A stretch of 64,000 bases of DNA from Verrucomicrobiia bacterium (GTDB lineage Bacteria > Verrucomicrobiota > Verrucomicrobiia > Limisphaerales > JADLHS01): contig JAHCLO010000012.1 of the NCBI GenBank assembly GCA_026125285.1, forward strand, positions 85,008 to 149,007, read 5' to 3'. A program made the translations under genes and the position numbers. The notes beneath the pieces are model-generated. The model had not been told where the DNA came from and searched no databases. It saw only the letters and a list, made by a program, of their open reading frames with translations. This document shows positions 1-6,921 of the stretch, in pieces; position 1 is the stretch's first letter; each line of letters begins with the position of its first letter.

Positions 1-1
1 G

Positions 2-202
2 GAGGTTCTCGTTACCGATGAGTCACAGCCTGTGCGGAAGTTCTCGGTGCCCAGCGAACTCAAGTCTGAGTTGCGTCGATTGCTTTCCGATTTGGGGCTG
101 GATGCCTGGAGCCTTTACGGCGGTCCAGATGCGCTGGGCAAGTCGATTACGAGCCGCCTCTGGAAGTCCAAGATAGCACCTGTAATTGCGACCCGGACAT
201 AA
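2..202 (+). CDS. 3' end (66 codons) of a gene starting upstream of the window; tail weakly resembles FRG-domain protein C-termini
   Basis: Frame 2 is open from the window edge to TAA at 200-202 (EVLVTDESQPVRKFSVPSELKSELRRLLSDLGLDAWSLYGGPDALGKSITSRLWKSKIAPVIATRT). It is absent from the ORF track because it has no start in the window. The family guess rests only on a remembered tail pattern. Confidence 0.3.
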   Translation, partial: EVLVTDESQPVRKFSVPSELKSELRRLLSDLGLDAWSLYGGPDALGKSITSRLWKSKIAPVIATRT

Positions 203-210
203 TCAAGCCG

Positions 211-819
211 ATGCGAGTCGCTATTCCGATCAAGGGCCATTCCGGCGACGTGGTGCTCGACCCGTTCTGCGACTGCGGCACGACGATTGACGCCGCCGAG
301 AAACTCGGCCGCGACTGGATCGGCATTGACGTGACGCAACGGGCCATTTCGCTCATCAAGAACCGCCTGCAAGACACCTACGGCCGCCGGCTGAAATTCC
401 TCTCCGGTGGCAGCCGACGTGAGTCGGCTCAAACTTCTTCTGCTCCAGAAAGTCAGAGCGGACTCACCTCCGCTGCTACCGCGGCCACGGCGCGCGGCGT
501 TCACGCCGCTTCAACCCCCGAACACGAGGCGAGGTCGAAGCGGGCTGAAGCCCGCGCTCCCGAAGGTAGGGCGGGCAGTCCTCTGCCCGCCGCAGAACAT
601 GGCGAGTCGTCCGCATCACCCGGCGGCGCGCACGGAGTGACGCGCCCTACCCGAGATGGCGCGCACGGAGTGACGCGCCCTACCGACGTTCACGTCGTTC
701 GCATCATCGGCGAACCCAGCCCCAGCCCGATTATGAAAAAGCGTGGCTCACCGCGGCGCTTCCGCTTACATTTCCGCGCATGGGCACGCTCTACTACGGC
801 GACAACCTCGACATCCTGA
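211..819 (+). pseudogene. 5'-truncated DNA methyltransferase remnant (copy 0 of the tandem array): SAM-binding motif I region plus hairpin-repeat linker, reading through the duplication junction
   Basis: Contains GDVVLDPFCDCGTTIDAAEKLGRDWIGIDV (motif I, FxGxG type) but no DPPF catalytic half. From about 245 it aligns with 1738-2312 and 3231-3704 with scattered substitutions (DPFCDCG vs DPFCGCG, TQRAISL vs TQLAISL). Confidence 0.6.
399..684. repeat. Hairpin-repeat (REP-like) block inside methyltransferase copy 0
   Basis: Same module order as 3385-3670. Here both distal modules are the GGCGCGCACGGAGTGACGCGCCCTACC type. Confidence 0.7.
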
Positions 820-2312
820 GGCGTTACCTCAAGGATGAATCGGTGGACCTCGTTTATCTCGACCCGCCCTTCAACTCCGCGCAGAACTACAACGCCTTCT
901 TTTCGGAAAAGGACGGCAGCGCCGCCGCCAGCCAGATTCACGCCTTCGAGGACACCTGGCATTGGGACATCGAAACCAAACGCGCCTACGACGCCGTGAC
1001 CGAGCAGCCCGGCAAAGTCTCCGACGTGATGCAGGCGTTCTACACCTTTCTCGGCGGCAACGACATGATGGCCTACCTCACCATGATGTCCGCGCGCCTC
1101 GTCGAACTGCGCCGCGTCCTCAAACCCACCGGCTCGCTCTACCTCCACTGCGACCCGACCGCCTCGCATTACCTCAAGCTGCTGTGCGATGCCATCATGG
1201 GGAAAGACAATTTCCGAAATGAAATCGTTTGGAAGCGAGCGAGCGCACACAACGACCCTCGAAAGTGCGGCGACATTCACGACACAATCCTGTTTTACTC
1301 CAAGAGCAACACTTACATTTGGAATCCCCAGTACACCAAGTACACGCAAGATTACCTCGATGCCGAATGGAATGAACTGCCATCAGGTCGTTACTGGAAA
1401 GCTGAGAACATGCTTGATCCGCGAAACTCGATGGAACTGTTCGATTTCAAAGGAACAAAAGCTCGTTGGAGAACGAGCCATGAGAAATTGATGGAACTCT
1501 GGAACGCTCCGCAGACAGACGTTCCAAATAGCCATGGAAGAATCAAACTTAGGAAGGATGGGAAGCCCTCCAAACGCTGCCGCATCATGTTCCTGGATGA
1601 ACTCCCCGGCGTGCCGCTGCAGAGCATCTGGCCAGACATCCCCTCACTACGCGGCGGCGCTGCCGAACGTCTCGGCTACCCGACGCAAAAGCCGGTGGCG
1701 TTGCTGGAGCGGATCATCCAGGCCAGCAGCAATCCCGGCGACGTGGTGCTCGATCCCTTCTGTGGCTGCGGCACGACGATTGACGCCGCCGAGAAACTCG
1801 GCCGCGACTGGATCGGCATTGACGTGACCCAACTGGCCATTTCGCTCATCAAGAACCGCCTGCAAGACACCTACGGCCGCCGGCTGAAATTCATCTCCGG
1901 TAGCAACCGACGTGAGTCGGCTCAAACTTCTTCTGCTCCAGAAAGTCAGAGCGGACTCACGTCCGCTGCTACCGCGGCCACGGCGCGCGGCGTTCACGCC
2001 GCTTCACCCCCCGAACACGAGGCGACGTCGAAGCGGGCTGAAGCCCGCGCTCCCGAAGGTAGGGCGGGCAGTCCTCTGCCCGCCGCCGAACCTGGCGAGT
2101 CGTCCGCATCTCCCGACGGCGCGCAGGGGACTGCGCGCCCTACCCGAGATGGCGCGCACGGAGTGACGCGCCCTACCGACGTTCACGTCGTTCGCATCAT
2201 CGGCGAACCCAGCCCCAGCCCGATTATGAAAAAGCGTGGCTCACCGCGGCGCTTCCGCTTACATTTCCGCGCATGGGCACGCTCTACTACGGCGACAACC
2301 TCGACATCCTGA
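780..2312 (+). CDS. N6-adenine/N4-cytosine DNA methyltransferase (N6_N4_Mtase family, beta-class motif order), copy 1 of the array. It lacks the nuclease-like C-terminal domain and ends in junction-derived sequence.
   Basis: Motif IV LVYLDPPFNS near the N-terminus and motif I VLDPFCGCGTT near residue 320. The N-terminal ~375 aa are identical to the 2273..4204 product. After IIGEP the frame runs into the duplicated 5' leader (SPSPIMKKRGSPRRFRLHFRAWARSTT...) and overlaps the next copy's start. Confidence 0.75.
   Translation: MGTLYYGDNLDILRRYLKDESVDLVYLDPPFNSAQNYNAFFSEKDGSAAASQIHAFEDTWHWDIETKRAYDAVTEQPGKVSDVMQAFYTFLGGNDMMAYLTMMSARLVELRRVLKPTGSLYLHCDPTASHYLKLLCDAIMGKDNFRNEIVWKRASAHNDPRKCGDIHDTILFYSKSNTYIWNPQYTKYTQDYLDAEWNELPSGRYWKAENMLDPRNSMELFDFKGTKARWRTSHEKLMELWNAPQTDVPNSHGRIKLRKDGKPSKRCRIMFLDELPGVPLQSIWPDIPSLRGGAAERLGYPTQKPVALLERIIQASSNPGDVVLDPFCGCGTTIDAAEKLGRDWIGIDVTQLAISLIKNRLQDTYGRRLKFISGSNRRESAQTSSAPESQSGLTSAATAATARGVHAASPPEHEATSKRAEARAPEGRAGSPLPAAEPGESSASPDGAQGTARPTRDGAHGVTRPTDVHVVRIIGEPSPSPIMKKRGSPRRFRLHFRAWARSTTATTSTS
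1892..2177. repeat. Hairpin-repeat (REP-like) block inside methyltransferase copy 1
   Basis: Shifted by 1493 bp from 3385-3670, with a few substitutions concentrated in this block (SGSN/SGSS, TSAATAATA/TAAATAVTE, SPDG/SPGG). Confidence 0.7.
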
Positions 2313-4204
2313 GGCGTTACCTCAAGGATGAATCGGTGGACCTCGTTTATCTCGACCCGCCCTTCAACTCCGCGCAGAACTACAACGCCTTCTTTTCGGA
2401 AAAGGACGGCAGCGCCGCCGCCAGCCAGATTCACGCCTTCGAGGACACCTGGCATTGGGACATCGAAACCAAACGCGCCTACGACGCCGTGACCGAGCAG
2501 CCCGGCAAAGTCTCCGACGTGATGCAGGCGTTCTACACCTTTCTCGGCGGCAACGACATGATGGCCTACCTCACCATGATGTCCGCGCGCCTCGTCGAAC
2601 TGCGCCGCGTCCTCAAACCCACCGGCTCGCTCTACCTCCACTGCGACCCGACCGCCTCGCATTACCTCAAGCTGCTGTGCGATGCCATCATGGGGAAAGA
2701 CAATTTCCGAAATGAAATCGTTTGGAAGCGAGCGAGCGCACACAACGACCCTCGAAAGTGCGGCGACATTCACGACACAATCCTGTTTTACTCCAAGAGC
2801 AACACTTACATTTGGAATCCCCAGTACACCAAGTACACGCAAGATTACCTCGATGCCGAATGGAATGAACTGCCATCAGGTCGTTACTGGAAAGCTGAGA
2901 ACATGCTTGATCCGCGAAACTCGATGGAACTGTTCGATTTCAAAGGAACAAAAGCTCGTTGGAGAACGAGCCATGAGAAATTGATGGAACTCTGGAACGC
3001 TCCGCAGACAGACGTTCCAAATAGCCATGGAAGAATCAAACTTAGGAAGGATGGGAAGCCCTCCAAACGCTGCCGCATCATGTTCCTGGATGAACTCCCC
3101 GGCGTGCCGCTGCAGAGCATCTGGCCAGACATCCCCTCACTACGCGGCGGCGCTGCCGAACGTCTCGGCTACCCGACGCAAAAGCCGGTGGCGTTGCTGG
3201 AGCGGATCATCCAGGCCAGCAGCAATCCCGGCGACGTGGTGCTCGATCCCTTCTGTGGCTGCGGCACGACGATTGACGCCGCCGAGAAACTCGGCCGCGA
3301 CTGGATCGGCATTGACGTGACCCAACTGGCCATTTCGCTCATCAAGAACCGCCTGCAAGACACCTACGGCCGCCGGCTGAAATTCATCTCCGGTAGCAGC
3401 CGACGTGAGTCGGCTCAGACTTCTTCTGCTCCAGAAAGTCAGAGCGGACTCACGGCCGCTGCTACCGCGGTCACGGAGCGCGGCGTTCACGCCGCTTCCA
3501 CCCCCGAACACGAGGCGACGTCGAAGCGGGCTGAAGCCCGCGCTCCCGAAGGTAGGGCGGGCAGTCCTCTGCCCGCCGCCGAACCTGGCGAGTCGTCCGC
3601 ATCACCCGGCGGCGCGCAGGGGACTGCGCGCCCTACCCGAGATGGCGCGCACGGAGTGACGCGCCCTACCGAGGTTCACGTCGTCCGCATCATCGGCGAA
3701 CCCACCACGCCCAGCGAAGCCGCCACGCTCGCGGAGGAGGACAAGTTCCAGTTCCAATGGTGGGCGCTGGGTCTCGTCGGCGCGCGACCCGTCGAGCAGA
3801 AGAAAGGCGCAGACCACGGCATTGACGGCAAAATTCTTTTCCGCGACGACCCGCGTGCCGCGAAGCCCGAGCAGATCATCATTCAAGTCAAAGGCGGCAA
3901 GACCGGCGTGAAGGACGTGCGCGATTTGCGCGGCGTGCTCGACCGCGAGAAAGCCGCCATCGGCGTTTTGATCTCCCTGCAACCGCCCACCGGCCCGATG
4001 GAAACCGAATCCGCGAGCGCCGGGTTTTACGAACACAAGACCAACCAGCAAAAGTATCCGCGCCTCCAGCTCCGCACGGTGAAGGAATTGATGGAAGGCA
4101 AGGGCCTCGAACGCCCCACGAGTGCCGCCGCACTGGAGGAGACGTTCAAGAAGGCGCCGAAGGCAAAAGCCCGGGGCCACGAACAAAGCGCATTGGGACT
4201 TTAG
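2273..4204 (+). CDS. DNA methyltransferase (N6_N4_Mtase family) fused to a C-terminal Mrr-like PD-(D/E)xK restriction-endonuclease-fold domain; full-length copy 2
   Basis: DPPF and FCGCGTT motifs as in copy 1. The C-terminus FQFQWWALGLVGARPVEQKKGADHGIDGKILF...QIIIQVKGGKTGVKDVRDLRGVL matches the Mrr_cat pattern (GIDG ... QVK). Confidence 0.85.
   Translation: MGTLYYGDNLDILRRYLKDESVDLVYLDPPFNSAQNYNAFFSEKDGSAAASQIHAFEDTWHWDIETKRAYDAVTEQPGKVSDVMQAFYTFLGGNDMMAYLTMMSARLVELRRVLKPTGSLYLHCDPTASHYLKLLCDAIMGKDNFRNEIVWKRASAHNDPRKCGDIHDTILFYSKSNTYIWNPQYTKYTQDYLDAEWNELPSGRYWKAENMLDPRNSMELFDFKGTKARWRTSHEKLMELWNAPQTDVPNSHGRIKLRKDGKPSKRCRIMFLDELPGVPLQSIWPDIPSLRGGAAERLGYPTQKPVALLERIIQASSNPGDVVLDPFCGCGTTIDAAEKLGRDWIGIDVTQLAISLIKNRLQDTYGRRLKFISGSSRRESAQTSSAPESQSGLTAAATAVTERGVHAASTPEHEATSKRAEARAPEGRAGSPLPAAEPGESSASPGGAQGTARPTRDGAHGVTRPTEVHVVRIIGEPTTPSEAATLAEEDKFQFQWWALGLVGARPVEQKKGADHGIDGKILFRDDPRAAKPEQIIIQVKGGKTGVKDVRDLRGVLDREKAAIGVLISLQPPTGPMETESASAGFYEHKTNQQKYPRLQLRTVKELMEGKGLERPTSAAALEETFKKAPKAKARGHEQSALGL
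3385..3670. repeat. Hairpin-repeat (REP-like) block forming the in-frame linker of methyltransferase copy 2
   Basis: Five palindromic modules. (1) 25-nt arms at 3392-3416 and 3442-3466, core GGTAGCAGCCGACGTGAG. (2) GCGGGC-TGAA-GCCCGC at 3526-3541. (3) GGCGGGCAG-TCCT-CTGCCCGCC at 3556-3577. (4) GGCGCGCAG-GGGA-CTGCGCGCC at 3611-3632. (5) GGCGCGCACGGAGTGACGCGCC at 3644-3665. Related copies lie in non-coding DNA at 27239-27317 and 58606-58676. Confidence 0.75.
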
Positions 4205-4206
4205 CG

Positions 4207-5148
4207 ATGCGTGGGAGCGATCTGGAGTCGGGGCCTTTGGAATTGGAGTGGAACTTCGACGCCGTACCGGGCGCCGAACTGGTGGCCTGCTGTTATTGGG
4301 AGTATGCGCGGGAATCGGCCTTCATCCGGGACGTGCGCCGGCAGGGTCTGCAAAACTGGCGGGCGGGGGGCAAATGGGACCTCGCCCTCAGCACTGATAT
4401 TCAGAAGCTCCAGAGCATTGGGTATCGCGCCGAGGTTTTTCTGCGCGGCTTTTTCTTTGAACCCGACATCATCCATCAAAGCACCGATGCCAACGCGCCG
4501 CACTACCGCCACCCAGACGCCCCGCCCATCACCGGGAGTTTTCCCAAACCCTGGCAGGCGTTGTGCCCGGAGGAGCGCGCCTATCGGGCCGGTTGTTGCC
4601 GGAAGAACAGCGCGTCGGAACCCACCCCGTTTCGACTGGCCCATTGGGGCTGGGCGAAAGACCTGGCGCAACACGTGGAGTCGCAGGCCCGCCGGATGCG
4701 CGCCGAGTTGCCCCCGGATCAGGGGCTGGGTCCGATCCGGCCGGCTCTGTGTTTCAGCAACGCGGAAACGCTGCTGGTGGACATTGACTGGGCGCAGTTC
4801 ACCAACGACCAGATTGCGCAGGCGTTCCGCCGCCACTTGAAAGCGATCCGGCCCCCGCACCTGCCGGAGCCGGATGGCCGGGGGCACAAGCCGGGAGACT
4901 GGCGGGCGCAACTGACGCGGCTGGCGGTGATGCGGTTGTTGTCGCGGTTCACGACGTTGGAATTAGTGGCCAAAAACGCGTTCCCGGCAATCTGGCAGAC
5001 CAAGCAGTTTGCGGGACGCAAATGGGGAGACATCACCAAATGGCATGATGCCCGCCGGGATGCGCGAAGGTTGTTTCATCGGCTGTTCCCGTTCCTGCCC
5101 GCCACCGAAAAGCCGCTTTCCTGGGTGCGTCGCCGTCCCGGCCAGTAG
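4207..5148 (+). CDS. Hypothetical protein (313 aa), start 3 nt after the methyltransferase stop
   Basis: Long ORF with coding-like composition. ATG at 4207 follows TAG at 4202-4204. No motif I can assign (LEWNFDAVPGAELVACCYWEYARESAFIRD...). Confidence 0.6.
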   Translation: MRGSDLESGPLELEWNFDAVPGAELVACCYWEYARESAFIRDVRRQGLQNWRAGGKWDLALSTDIQKLQSIGYRAEVFLRGFFFEPDIIHQSTDANAPHYRHPDAPPITGSFPKPWQALCPEERAYRAGCCRKNSASEPTPFRLAHWGWAKDLAQHVESQARRMRAELPPDQGLGPIRPALCFSNAETLLVDIDWAQFTNDQIAQAFRRHLKAIRPPHLPEPDGRGHKPGDWRAQLTRLAVMRLLSRFTTLELVAKNAFPAIWQTKQFAGRKWGDITKWHDARRDARRLFHRLFPFLPATEKPLSWVRRRPGQ

Positions 5149-5234
5149 CGTGATCGTTCCTGGCTACCCGGCAAATGCCGTGGTGTTTCCAAGTCTTACG
5201 CTGATTGCTTTGCCGCGTTTTAATGGGCGGCAAG

Positions 5235-5441
5235 ATGACATCCGTTCCATCCTCCAATCTGGCCGCGGTCGGCTACAATCCGTTCACGGCGGTGCTCACC
5301 ATCGCGTTCCATGGCGACCGCGTTTATCAATATTTCCGCGTCCCGGTTTCCATTTATCAAGGGCTGCTGCGCGCGGAGTCGCACGGCAAGTATTTCCACG
5401 CCCATATCAAGAACCGTTACGCTTACCGCCGCATCCGATGA
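5235..5441 (+). CDS. KTSC domain-containing protein
   Basis: SSNLAAVGYNPFTAVLTIAFHGDRVYQYFRVPVSIYQGLLRAESHGKYFHAHIKNRY matches the KTSC pattern (S..I..vGYd....L.v.F..G..Y.Y..VP...y..l..A.S.G.yf...I). Alternative starts at 5205 and 5223. Confidence 0.7.
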   Translation: MTSVPSSNLAAVGYNPFTAVLTIAFHGDRVYQYFRVPVSIYQGLLRAESHGKYFHAHIKNRYAYRRIR

Positions 5442-5869
5442 ACTCCAAGGGTACAACCACGGCCGAAATCCGCATCATGCTGACCGAGATGGTCGCGGAG
5501 GCGCAAGCACTCCAGCAGGCGGCGGGCGGCTCAGTCACCGATGCCGTCGCCGGCTGGCTCGGCCCGCAGTATCTGCTGGCCGCACGCGAAAAATTGACCG
5601 CCGCCGATGGGAACGCCCGGTTCGAGGTGTTGCGGACGTTCCTGCACGACTGGTCGCTGCTGCGGCGCGGCGGTCACGCGGCAGCCCGGCTGCAACTGGA
5701 CCGCGAGGAACTCGACTGGCAGCGGGCCAATGGTCAGGCCCGGAAACAGCAGGAATTCCGGGAATGGATTCAGCGTCCCGAAATCCGCGCCGAGTTTTTC
5801 CCCGAACGATCCAACGGTTTGAGCGAGGAAACCGTGCGAAAAATTGAACGGGAATTGCACTTGTTTTGA
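5438..5869 (+). CDS. Hypothetical protein (143 aa); its C-terminal module is paralogous to that of the 6178..6921 product
   Basis: ATG at 5438 overlaps the KTSC stop (ATGA). It is the in-frame distal part of ORF 5009..5869. The C-terminus is LRRGGHAAARLQLDREELDW...EFREWIQRPEIRAEF...LSEETVRKIERELHLF. Confidence 0.55.
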   Translation: MNSKGTTTAEIRIMLTEMVAEAQALQQAAGGSVTDAVAGWLGPQYLLAAREKLTAADGNARFEVLRTFLHDWSLLRRGGHAAARLQLDREELDWQRANGQARKQQEFREWIQRPEIRAEFFPERSNGLSEETVRKIERELHLF

Positions 5870-6072
5870 AACCTCACTCCCCAACTCCGCGCCGTGGGCG
5901 CCACCCCGCCGGGTATCGTTCCGCGTTTGCCCGGCTCGACGCCGTGCTGGCAGCGCAGCCGCCACCGGACCATTCCGAGAAGCTCCGGTTGCTCTATCGC
6001 GTCATGTTCGGTGACGAGGATGAACCGGCCGAGGACGGCGCGGCTCAATTGCCGGCAGGTAACCATGGATGA
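5866..6072 (+). CDS. Possible small hypothetical protein (68 aa)
   Basis: TTG start overlapping the preceding stop. A competing ORF at 5894..6181 in another frame leaves the call uncertain. Confidence 0.25.
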   Translation: MKPHSPTPRRGRHPAGYRSAFARLDAVLAAQPPPDHSEKLRLLYRVMFGDEDEPAEDGAAQLPAGNHG

Positions 6073-6177
6073 ACCGAGCTTCACGCAGCGGAAAGCACCA
6101 ACGGCCGCGGCTGGTCTTTCAGACCCAGCCGCGCTCCGTAAAAAGTCGGTGTCCACCAGCAGTTCACAAATTTACCC

Positions 6178-6921
6178 ATGACTCGTAACGGCAAGATTGC
6201 CCGCCTGCCGCGCGACCTGCGCGATGAGTTGAACCTTCGGCTGGCCGATGGTCAGTGCGGCAAGGCGTTGCTGGCCTGGCTGAACGGCCTGCCCCAAGTC
6301 ACGGAAGTCCTGAGCCGGGACTTCGGCGGCGCGGCCATCAGCAAACAAAACCTGAGCGAATGGCGGGCCGGCGGTTTTGCCGAGTGGCAGGCGCGGCAGG
6401 AGACGCTGGCCCAGGCCCGCGAACTGGCCGCCGATGCCCGGGAAATCACCGCGGCGACGGAGGGCCGGTTGACGGATCATCTGGCCACCGTGCTGGCGGC
6501 GCGTTATGCCGCGGCGCTGGGGGGCTGGAACGGGGAATTGTCCGAGTCGTTCCGGCGCCAGCTCCGCACCTTGCGGGGGCTGTGTCAGGACATTGTCGAG
6601 TTGCGCCGGGGTGATCATAGCGGCGCGCGGCTGCAGATGGAACGGGAGCGGCTGGAGCGGGAGCGGGAGAAAACCGAGGAGGAAGTGGTGGCGCATTTCC
6701 AGCAATGGGCGGAGAATCCGGCGGTGCGGAAGTGGATTCAGCGGGATCGGATCAGCCCGGAGGAAAAGGCCCGCCGCATCCGGGAAATCTACGGCCTGCC
6801 ACCGGAGCCGCCGGCGACCCCGGCCGCCACCACCGGCGAGTCCAACCCGGTCAAACCCGGTCAAAGTGAGTCAAACCAAGTCAAACCTGAACCAAAGGCA
6901 TCCGGACCCGCATCTGCGTAG
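6178..6921 (+). CDS. Hypothetical protein (247 aa); the N-terminus resembles DUF3486/phage Mu gp27-like HTH proteins
   Basis: MTRNGKIARLPRDLRDELNLRLADGQCGKALLAWLNGLP...ISKQNLSEW resembles the remembered DUF3486 opening (..K.d.LP.elreeLn.rL.dg...). The C-terminal module is shared with the 5438..5869 product. The tail is encoded by phased GTCAAAC repeats. Confidence 0.6.
   Translation: MTRNGKIARLPRDLRDELNLRLADGQCGKALLAWLNGLPQVTEVLSRDFGGAAISKQNLSEWRAGGFAEWQARQETLAQARELAADAREITAATEGRLTDHLATVLAARYAAALGGWNGELSESFRRQLRTLRGLCQDIVELRRGDHSGARLQMERERLEREREKTEEEVVAHFQQWAENPAVRKWIQRDRISPEEKARRIREIYGLPPEPPATPAATTGESNPVKPGQSESNQVKPEPKASGPASA
6840..6889. repeat. Five direct 10-bp repeats with a GTCAAAC core
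   Basis: GTCCAACCCG GTCAAACCCG GTCAAAGTGA GTCAAACCAA GTCAAACCTG, exact 10-bp phasing, inside the 3' end of the 6178..6921 CDS (encodes SNPVKPGQSESNQVKP). Confidence 0.8.

Follow-up and report, generated by a model that had tools for sequence, protein, structure and literature searches.

What is the cassette of five open reading frames (ORFs) at positions 4207-6921 of a 64,000-nucleotide (nt) stretch of a Verrucomicrobiia genome, and how is it related to the DNA methyltransferase gene that directly precedes it? The stretch (the window) covers positions 85008-149007 of contig C4 in a 7.16-Mb genome assembly of 79 contigs (G000). A preliminary description had offered two candidate answers, an undescribed restriction or defence accessory module and a remnant of a mobile element. 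The cassette is best read as a conserved backbone shared by small mobile islands of the Verrucomicrobiota that lack an integrase and whose cargo is usually a single-chain restriction-modification (R-M) enzyme. We are highly confident that the module forms the backbone of a mobile defence island, and is neither a housekeeping operon nor a dead remnant. Each of the two earlier answers is therefore right in part. The link to R-M genes is real and extends to at least five unrelated kinds, but the cassette is probably not an accessory subunit of a particular enzyme (as judged from a tree of its first gene) and has no match in PADLOC. Likewise, the element is mobile, as seen from an empty site and a minimal island, but it is not a remnant, the module being intact, conserved and widespread.

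The five ORFs, all on the forward strand, are present at the coordinates first reported for them, and they are real genes rather than chance frames because all five, p68 included, are found again in the same order in other genomes. The first conserved backbone gene, p313 (4207-5148), is predicted to encode a mostly alpha-helical protein; its ATG lies 2 nt past the TAG stop codon (4202-4204) of the gene for a 643-residue fusion of an N6_N4 DNA methyltransferase with an Mrr_cat nuclease domain. The second encodes a KTSC-domain protein, as had been proposed (PF13619, E = 1.7e-23, 82.5 bits against a gathering cut-off of 25 bits), and starts either from an ATG (5223-5441, 72 residues) or from a TTG at 5205 (78 residues). 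An optional member, p143 (5438-5869), is a paralogue of p247 and overlaps the KTSC gene by ATGA; it is followed by p68 (5866-6072), an optional small conserved ORF whose TTG start overlaps the p143 stop codon (TTGA). Both overlaps agree with the preliminary description. The last gene, p247 (6178-6921), encodes an orphan homologue, of the Mu gp27 type, of proteins found at the small-terminase position in phages. The codon-position GC of p313 and p247 is coding-like.

Evidence for mobility comes from three states of a single site, between secA and a gene encoding a BSP-family peptidase. In G001, a genome of the same genus, the site is empty: between the end of secA (C62:3873) and the start of the peptidase gene (3943) there is a 66-nt spacer, which aligns with the DNA right after the p247 stop codon in the window. 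In the window genome, 8,996 bp (C4:82933-91928; the 9.0-kb island) lie between the secA stop codon and that spacer. The same secA-peptidase site is occupied by an island of 4.6 kb in L115, a Logan contig with a 92.7% identical secA; this island consists of one methyltransferase-Mrr gene, p313, KTSC, p68 and p247. The locus thus exists in empty, minimal and expanded forms. Additions in the 9.0-kb form are a reverse-strand S-adenosylmethionine (SAM) methyltransferase gene, tandem methyltransferase copies and an FRG-domain ORF (PF08867, E = 3.3e-20), the last of which had already been suspected upstream of the cassette.

The left boundary of the island falls outside the window, at C4:82933, immediately past the secA stop codon. 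The right boundary falls at 6921/6922 of the window; in the junction alignment, the sequence from 6922 onward matches what separates secA from the peptidase gene at the empty site. Loci L004 and L041 mark the right boundary a second time, independently. They have their left flank gene in common (72-75% DNA identity), carry different R-M cargo and are 84% identical over the p143-p68-p247 segment, with homology ending 9 nt past the p247 stop codon. Because both an empty site and a minimal 4.6-kb island occur at the same locus, the R-M gene and the cassette are seen to insert together, as one unit between housekeeping genes, and the island ends at the p247 stop codon. Beyond the islands, the flanks are unrelated host genes, for example those for sigma-70, MetH, SMC, GlgB and G6PD. 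For the island of L041 and L044, no boundary could be drawn from a second empty site; an adh_short flank gene is conserved in 11 relatives and the other side is not syntenic.

No integrase gene is present in either the 9.0-kb or the 4.6-kb island, no transposase domain was found in the island genes, which do not make up a transposon, and no island gene contains a primase or replicase domain. The preliminary description had pointed to att-like repeats or integrases at the flanks as a possible sign of mobility, and the flanks did not bear this out, only TAG/GTAG being common to the two junctions. Comparison of the junctions found no inverted repeat linking the island ends, and neither an array nor inverted repeats were found at the left end. 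Rfam, promoter and terminator scans of the island gave nothing above chance. In one distant relative (L032), a tyrosine integrase gene is located 1.2 kb upstream.

Immediately upstream of p313, and on the same strand, there is nearly always a defence gene. Those observed directly or closely upstream include full MmeI-type enzymes, fusions of an N6_N4 methyltransferase with Mrr_cat, an N6_N4-NmeDI_C enzyme accompanied by another methyltransferase, an Eco57I/TaqI_C/HSDR_N enzyme, a ResIII helicase paired with an N6_N4 methyltransferase (taken to be type III-like), PLD and HNH nucleases alongside an N6_N4 methyltransferase, a pair of ATPases (AAA_15/AAA_21) and a gene with a weak SduA_C match. 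The co-occurrence with methyltransferases or defence genes raised in the preliminary description is therefore borne out, relatives of p313 lying directly downstream of at least five unrelated R-M kinds and of other defence-like genes; the opposing possibility, that the families sit in conserved housekeeping contexts, does not agree with R-M or defence genes upstream and unrelated flanks. Cargo type requires 12 changes on a maximum-likelihood tree built from 38 p313 proteins, compared with a mean of 12.9 after shuffling. The cargo is exchanged freely and the backbone is not tied to any enzyme type. Since cargo type is unrelated to the p313 tree, it can be argued that the cassette is not an accessory subunit of one particular R-M enzyme.

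In the window, the cargo gene (2273-4204, forward strand; N6_N4_Mtase E = 2.1e-45, Mrr_cat E = 5.9e-7) matches PADLOC Type II methyltransferase models and is the last copy of a tandem amplification (repeat family D1/D2, 1,493-bp spacing) that fills positions 1-4204 and extends to C4:84103-85007. Two of the methyltransferase copies are near-identical (98% at the protein level), and an older copy is broken by the FRG-domain ORF and has an in-frame stop codon. The amplification is either recent or specific to the window assembly, given that L115 has a single methyltransferase copy.

In several other loci, one to three extra ORFs of 200-390 residues are found between the R-M gene and p313 (L007:5860-7950, L026:5305-7670, L021:4802-7947 and L018:6620-7669). 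Those tested mostly had no Pfam or PADLOC match, and one (L026:5305-6483) weakly matched PADLOC type I methyltransferase models. These ORFs are candidates for undescribed defence cargo.

The p313 family comprises at least 343 clusters at 90% identity. A profile search recovered 835 clusters at 50% identity, every one of them a stand-alone protein of about 300 residues, and no fusion to another domain was found among the best 150 representatives. The p247 family comprises more than 1,250 clusters at 90% identity, many of them 65-85% identical. Almost all relatives of the cassette in public data carry Verrucomicrobiota labels. Our locus set consisted of the window and 39 genome loci (40 in all), most of them from metagenome bins, with crude gene calls in the fetched loci; six of the 39 are labelled otherwise (four Bifidobacteriaceae, one Hyphomicrobiales and one Sulfotelmatobacter) and are taken to be mis-binned or mislabelled. 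The order p313-KTSC-(p143)-(p68)-p247 is seen in about 25 of the 40 loci, with KTSC following p313 in 26 and a member of the p247 family present in 25. The p68 ORF cluster occurs in 8 loci and is called as a gene of 67-70 residues in L041, L115 and L116; p143 is precisely deleted in the closest relative, L115, and missing from many other loci. The core of the module is therefore p313, the KTSC protein and p247, while p143 and p68 are optional. Distribution among 41 related genomes is patchy, with p313 in 6 and p247 in 13, and three such islands coexist in one genome of 3.5 Mb. A housekeeping operon was considered and rejected in view of this patchiness, the empty site and the unrelated flanks in every locus.

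Some loci have, after KTSC or p313, different unannotated proteins in place of p247 (L012:9225-9833, L013 and L018; L022:988-1884 and L027). One of the replacing families is 202 residues long and has a similar N-terminal helix-turn-helix look, and another is about 300 residues long and starts MPKR...NRRNAQ.STGP.T..GK. Neither has a Pfam or NCBIfam match.

The backbone proteins differ in how far they can be classified. p313 has no match in Pfam, PHROG, NCBIfam or PADLOC. Its AlphaFold2 (AF2) model is mostly helical, with a predicted local distance difference test score (pLDDT) of 67, and has no neighbour in the PDB by fold (Foldseek, none with E < 1) or by profile. The invariant residues of p313 are mainly Arg, Lys and Trp, in which it is rich, together with acidic residues, and it shows no apparent catalytic motif of any known recombinase class. 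The KTSC protein belongs to a known domain family without an assigned function and matches PHROG 3292 and 8113, both likewise of unknown function. That p313 and the KTSC protein act in nucleic-acid binding or regulation would be a guess. In PADLOC-DB 2.0 there is no match for p313, KTSC, p143 or p247; of the island proteins searched, only the cargo methyltransferase matches, to R-M models.

In p247, an N-terminal domain resembling a helix-turn-helix is accompanied by a long coiled coil and, at the C-terminus, by the motif ...EIYG/EIFG. Its AF2 model (pLDDT 79, above 90 over residues 11-60) has a small helical N-terminal domain followed by long helices; no PDB match with E < 1 was returned by Foldseek, and a sequence profile search of the PDB was empty. 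Structure prediction, suggested earlier as a check for ordinary metabolic folds, thus assigned no such fold, and it gave neither p313 nor p247 a PDB counterpart. Mu gp27 (PF11985, formerly DUF3486) is the presumed small terminase of Mu-like phages, and the resemblance of the p247 N-terminus to it, noted in the preliminary description, is weak by Pfam: E is 0.011 and the score 16.6 bits against a cut-off of 28 bits, over profile positions 1-167 of 173. PF11985 matches 19 of 28 p247-family members, all below threshold (best E = 1.6e-4). The same resemblance is strong by hhalign, which aligned the island p247 family with 18 viral proteins over 206 columns (probability 100%, E = 7.2e-47), from the N-terminal GKIARLP...WLN...QNLSEW domain to the C-terminal ...(I/M)FG motif. 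Homologues 27-46% identical to p247 are encoded on 19 IMG/VR contigs, in 17 of which two large-terminase parts come directly after the homologue, and in 14 a portal gene as well (phrog_2, phrog_113). Judged from these alignments, p247 is a full-length homologue of phage small-terminase-position proteins that occurs as an orphan in the islands, where no copy has a large terminase or portal gene beside it. p143 is a distant paralogue of the central and C-terminal part of p247, 30-31% identical to residues 96-205 and about 30% identical over the C-terminal two thirds; it lacks the N-terminal DNA-binding domain.

The viral relatives of p247 are not called Mu-like here, because a search of five viral records for the Mu-type DDE transposase (PF02914) gave no match and its control likewise gave none. 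Among the cultured phages of INPHARED, tblastn found no match for p313 or p247, and no viral relatives were found for p313 (none in IMG/VR), KTSC, p143 or p68. A Mu-like prophage, with long ORFs after p247, was also considered. It was rejected, those ORFs being spurious or ordinary and the genome containing no related large terminase or portal. The ordinary ones are the signal-peptide BSP-family peptidase gene and then ZnuA and ABC-3 genes, in agreement with the earlier view of the downstream neighbours as secreted-enzyme genes. On one of the IMG/VR contigs with a p247 homologue, a methyltransferase 40% identical to the N6_N4-Mrr enzyme of the window (L077:4485-5837) is encoded about 4.5 kb upstream of the small-terminase gene.

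At the 3′ end of p247, four to five RTCAAAC units repeated exactly every 10 bp form an array (6840-6889, forward strand), 35 nt from the right end of the island. The array underlies the last 30 codons of p247 and is read as the ...ESNPVKPGQSESNQVKP tail of the protein, three units corresponding to the 10-residue peptide repeat ESNPVKPSQT. In relatives, the array is found in frame, across the stop codon or after it. Because it is kept whatever the reading frame, the array is maintained as DNA. A strict three-unit pattern identified 15 arrays in 8 of the 41 related genomes, and the reversed pattern, used as a control, identified none. Five of the strict arrays are at p247 3′ ends and ten are orphans; four of the orphans, one of them on contig C15 of the window genome, have as neighbours R-M methyltransferase genes, relics of the p247 C-terminus or both, and the other six are without such a neighbour.

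The window genome also harbors a second, degraded island (C15:7596-11438, equivalent to L117:2597-6439), which encodes a 1,118-residue gamma-class Eco57I-like methyltransferase (GIYYTP, NPPW). About 370 nt past this gene, 35 residues of a p247-type C-terminus survive as a relic that contains an in-frame stop codon, and a three-unit ATCAAAC array comes directly after it. Five-unit RTCAAAC arrays are found elsewhere in the same genome (C6:131521-131547 and C12:7978-8004), in regions of polysaccharide biosynthesis, about 70-110 nt ahead of where the next gene starts and with no p247, p313 or R-M gene nearby. These two arrays could represent a regulatory site, bent DNA or a scar.

Short phased repeats in or beside the small-terminase gene are the classical anatomy of a pac site, as in P1 and SPP1. 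The backbone may accordingly be built around a small terminase and a pac-like site, and the island may spread by means of phage. p247 would be an island-encoded small terminase, whose N-terminal domain would bind the phased array as a pac-like site and whose conserved C-terminal motif would engage the large terminase of an infecting or induced phage. Packaging would then begin at the island end, the island and adjoining DNA would be carried in phage particles, and the phage's own packaging would probably be impaired. p143, having no DNA-binding domain, could modulate the p247 oligomer or the small terminase of the phage. Precedents exist for satellites that encode their own packaging specifiers (bioRxiv 10.1101/2024.04.22.590561) and for the phage-mediated spread of defence islands by lateral transduction (PMC12829572). 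We propose this mechanism tentatively, as a serious possibility that falls somewhat short of an even chance. A bolder form of it would make the 4.6-kb integrase-less "pac island" the smallest phage-parasitic mobile element yet seen. Built from one defence gene, two proteins of new fold, a homologue of the small terminase and a phased array resembling a pac site, it would spread restriction and other defence genes through the Verrucomicrobiota by phage packaging, with p313 as a new recombinase or cargo-capture device; this we regard as rather unlikely.

Several observations weigh against packaging. The ten orphan arrays lie away from p247, two genomes have arrays and no detectable p247, and no RTCAAAC array occurs within 10 kb of the p247-homologue gene on the viral contigs. 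Since the viral homologues are without it, the array is not tied to the DNA specificity of the p247 family. The absence of a related large terminase or portal from the window genome also means that there is no resident helper phage. p313, the most constant neighbour of the cargo, has no part in the packaging model. Nor does the model account for the first insertion, given that there is no integrase, excisionase, replication gene or clear att repeat, and that the TAG/GTAG is all that the junctions have in common. Packaging, DNA binding and transfer are each steps that we infer.

The array and the strict placement of the cassette also bear on a different possibility, that the cassette is itself anti-phage. 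p247 and p143 would in this case be decoys that titrate or misdirect the large terminase of a phage, the R-M genes being merely co-located and mobility a separate matter. Such decoys would be expected to look much as these proteins do, p247 having retained the full length and C-terminal motif of the phage proteins and p143, its paralogue without a helix-turn-helix, resembling a dominant-negative subunit. The neighbouring genes are nearly always defence genes, and satellite or prophage systems that block the phage terminase are documented (bioRxiv 10.1101/2024.04.22.590561 and 10.1101/2025.02.27.640495). However, no PADLOC model matched the cassette, p143 is dispensable, and the cassette is always the terminal block of the insert, whereas ordinary defence islands have no strict order and orientation. 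Decoys would also leave the conserved DNA array unexplained, and we consider this explanation unlikely.

A site-specific recombination module would account for the array in another way. p313 would be a recombinase of new fold, p247 a DNA-bending or directionality factor acting on the array as arm-type sites, and the KTSC protein an accessory, the whole inserting the island and capturing cargo upstream of p313. Insertion is indeed precise, with the downstream intergenic DNA intact, the island moves without a known recombinase, and p313 is the gene most constantly beside the cargo slot. Subterminal phased direct-repeat arrays are, moreover, typical of recombinase and accessory-protein sites at element ends. 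On the other hand, p313 has neither motif nor fold of the tyrosine, serine, DDE or HUH enzymes, the left end has no array or inverted repeat, and the closest relatives of p247 are packaging-position proteins rather than excisionases. For these reasons recombination by the cassette itself seems improbable.

The close spacing of cargo and cassette raises the further possibility of transcriptional control, in which p313 and the helix-turn-helix protein p247 would control expression of the upstream restriction enzyme while it becomes established in a new host, with the array as an operator or outward promoter element. In several loci cargo and cassette are tightly coupled on a single strand, 0-40 nt apart or overlapping slightly, and no terminator-like forward-strand site lies between them. 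Three arrays in the window genome are located about 70-110 nt upstream of a gene start, and p313 gives weak, non-significant fold hints to sigma-factor region 4. We nevertheless judge a control module very unlikely. The cassette lies downstream rather than upstream of the cargo, which comes in unrelated kinds, and a single-chain enzyme offers no nuclease gene of its own whose expression could be delayed. A length of about 80 residues and a C-box upstream of their own gene characterise controller proteins, neither of which is seen here, and the homology of p247 to phage packaging proteins would be unexplained. An inert relic of a prophage packaging region, left beside a methyltransferase gene by chance, would fit the phage derivation of p247 and the truncated relics that do occur (for example, the p247 C-terminal fragment and array beside an R-M gene on C15), but it is hardly credible given intact ORFs that are 45-86% identical over hundreds of clusters, in the same order and with overlapping start and stop codons, the lack of viral homologues of p313, KTSC, p143 and p68, and the fact that no other phage gene is ever adjacent.

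Among the known systems closest to the islands are phage-inducible chromosomal islands (PICIs) and other satellites that have their own small terminase or packaging specifier, such as TerS of the Staphylococcus aureus pathogenicity islands (SaPIs), Rpp of the Escherichia coli PICIs and GpsA/GpsB of the PICI-like elements (PLEs). Both are small islands with an orphan small-terminase homologue and no large terminase, both have exchangeable defence cargo beside a conserved core and a patchy distribution among relatives, and in both the small-terminase gene contains or adjoins a repeat-rich candidate packaging site. Unlike these satellites, the p247 island has no integrase, excisionase, repressor, primase or replicase, capsid-remodelling gene or att repeats; it is only 4.6 kb long in its minimal form, and p313 and KTSC are unrelated to any satellite gene. 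To our knowledge, no satellites have been described in the Verrucomicrobiota. With Mu gp27 itself, p247 has in common near-whole coverage of the profile, and with the viral homologues the N-terminal domain. It differs from gp27 in standing alone at the end of a non-phage island, in having a paralogue that lacks the helix-turn-helix, in its extra array-encoded tail and in a Pfam score below the gathering cut-off.

Mobile R-M complexes are similar in that an R-M gene lies in a short insert between housekeeping genes, with several unrelated R-M types at one position. The described cases move via transposons, integrons, prophages or long target duplications, and we know of no report of such a complex with a p313-KTSC-p247 backbone. 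The cassette differs from an R-M controller (C) protein in its position downstream of the cargo, in the size (247 residues) and terminase type of p247, and in the variety of the cargo. The P2/P4 defence hotspots likewise have variable defence cargo in a fixed slot beside conserved element genes, and in lateral transduction the spread of defence genes has been proposed to be linked to phage packaging signals (PMC12829572). The element described here differs in being neither a prophage nor a recognised satellite, and its packaging-type gene is its own rather than that of a neighbouring prophage.

The islands thus represent a compact and very widespread cargo-swapping platform in a little-studied phylum of soil and freshwater, the only recognisable part of which is a phage packaging protein. 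The known answers to how chromosomal defence genes pass from one bacterium to another (satellites, prophage hotspots and lateral transduction) come almost all from Proteobacteria and Firmicutes. If the packaging model were true, the island would be a minimal satellite-like vehicle for defence genes and would provide a context for two large families, p313 and stand-alone KTSC proteins. Even with another mechanism, the module would be a practical marker for new defence cargo in the Verrucomicrobiota, since uncharacterised genes, too, occupy the slot upstream of p313.

One further methyltransferase gene lies near the island of the window genome. Flanked by genes for an FAD oxidoreductase and an aconitase-C-like protein, a 423-residue fragment of N6_Mtase/Eco57I type (L001:12539-13810, C4:77546-78817) is encoded 6 kb upstream of the island.

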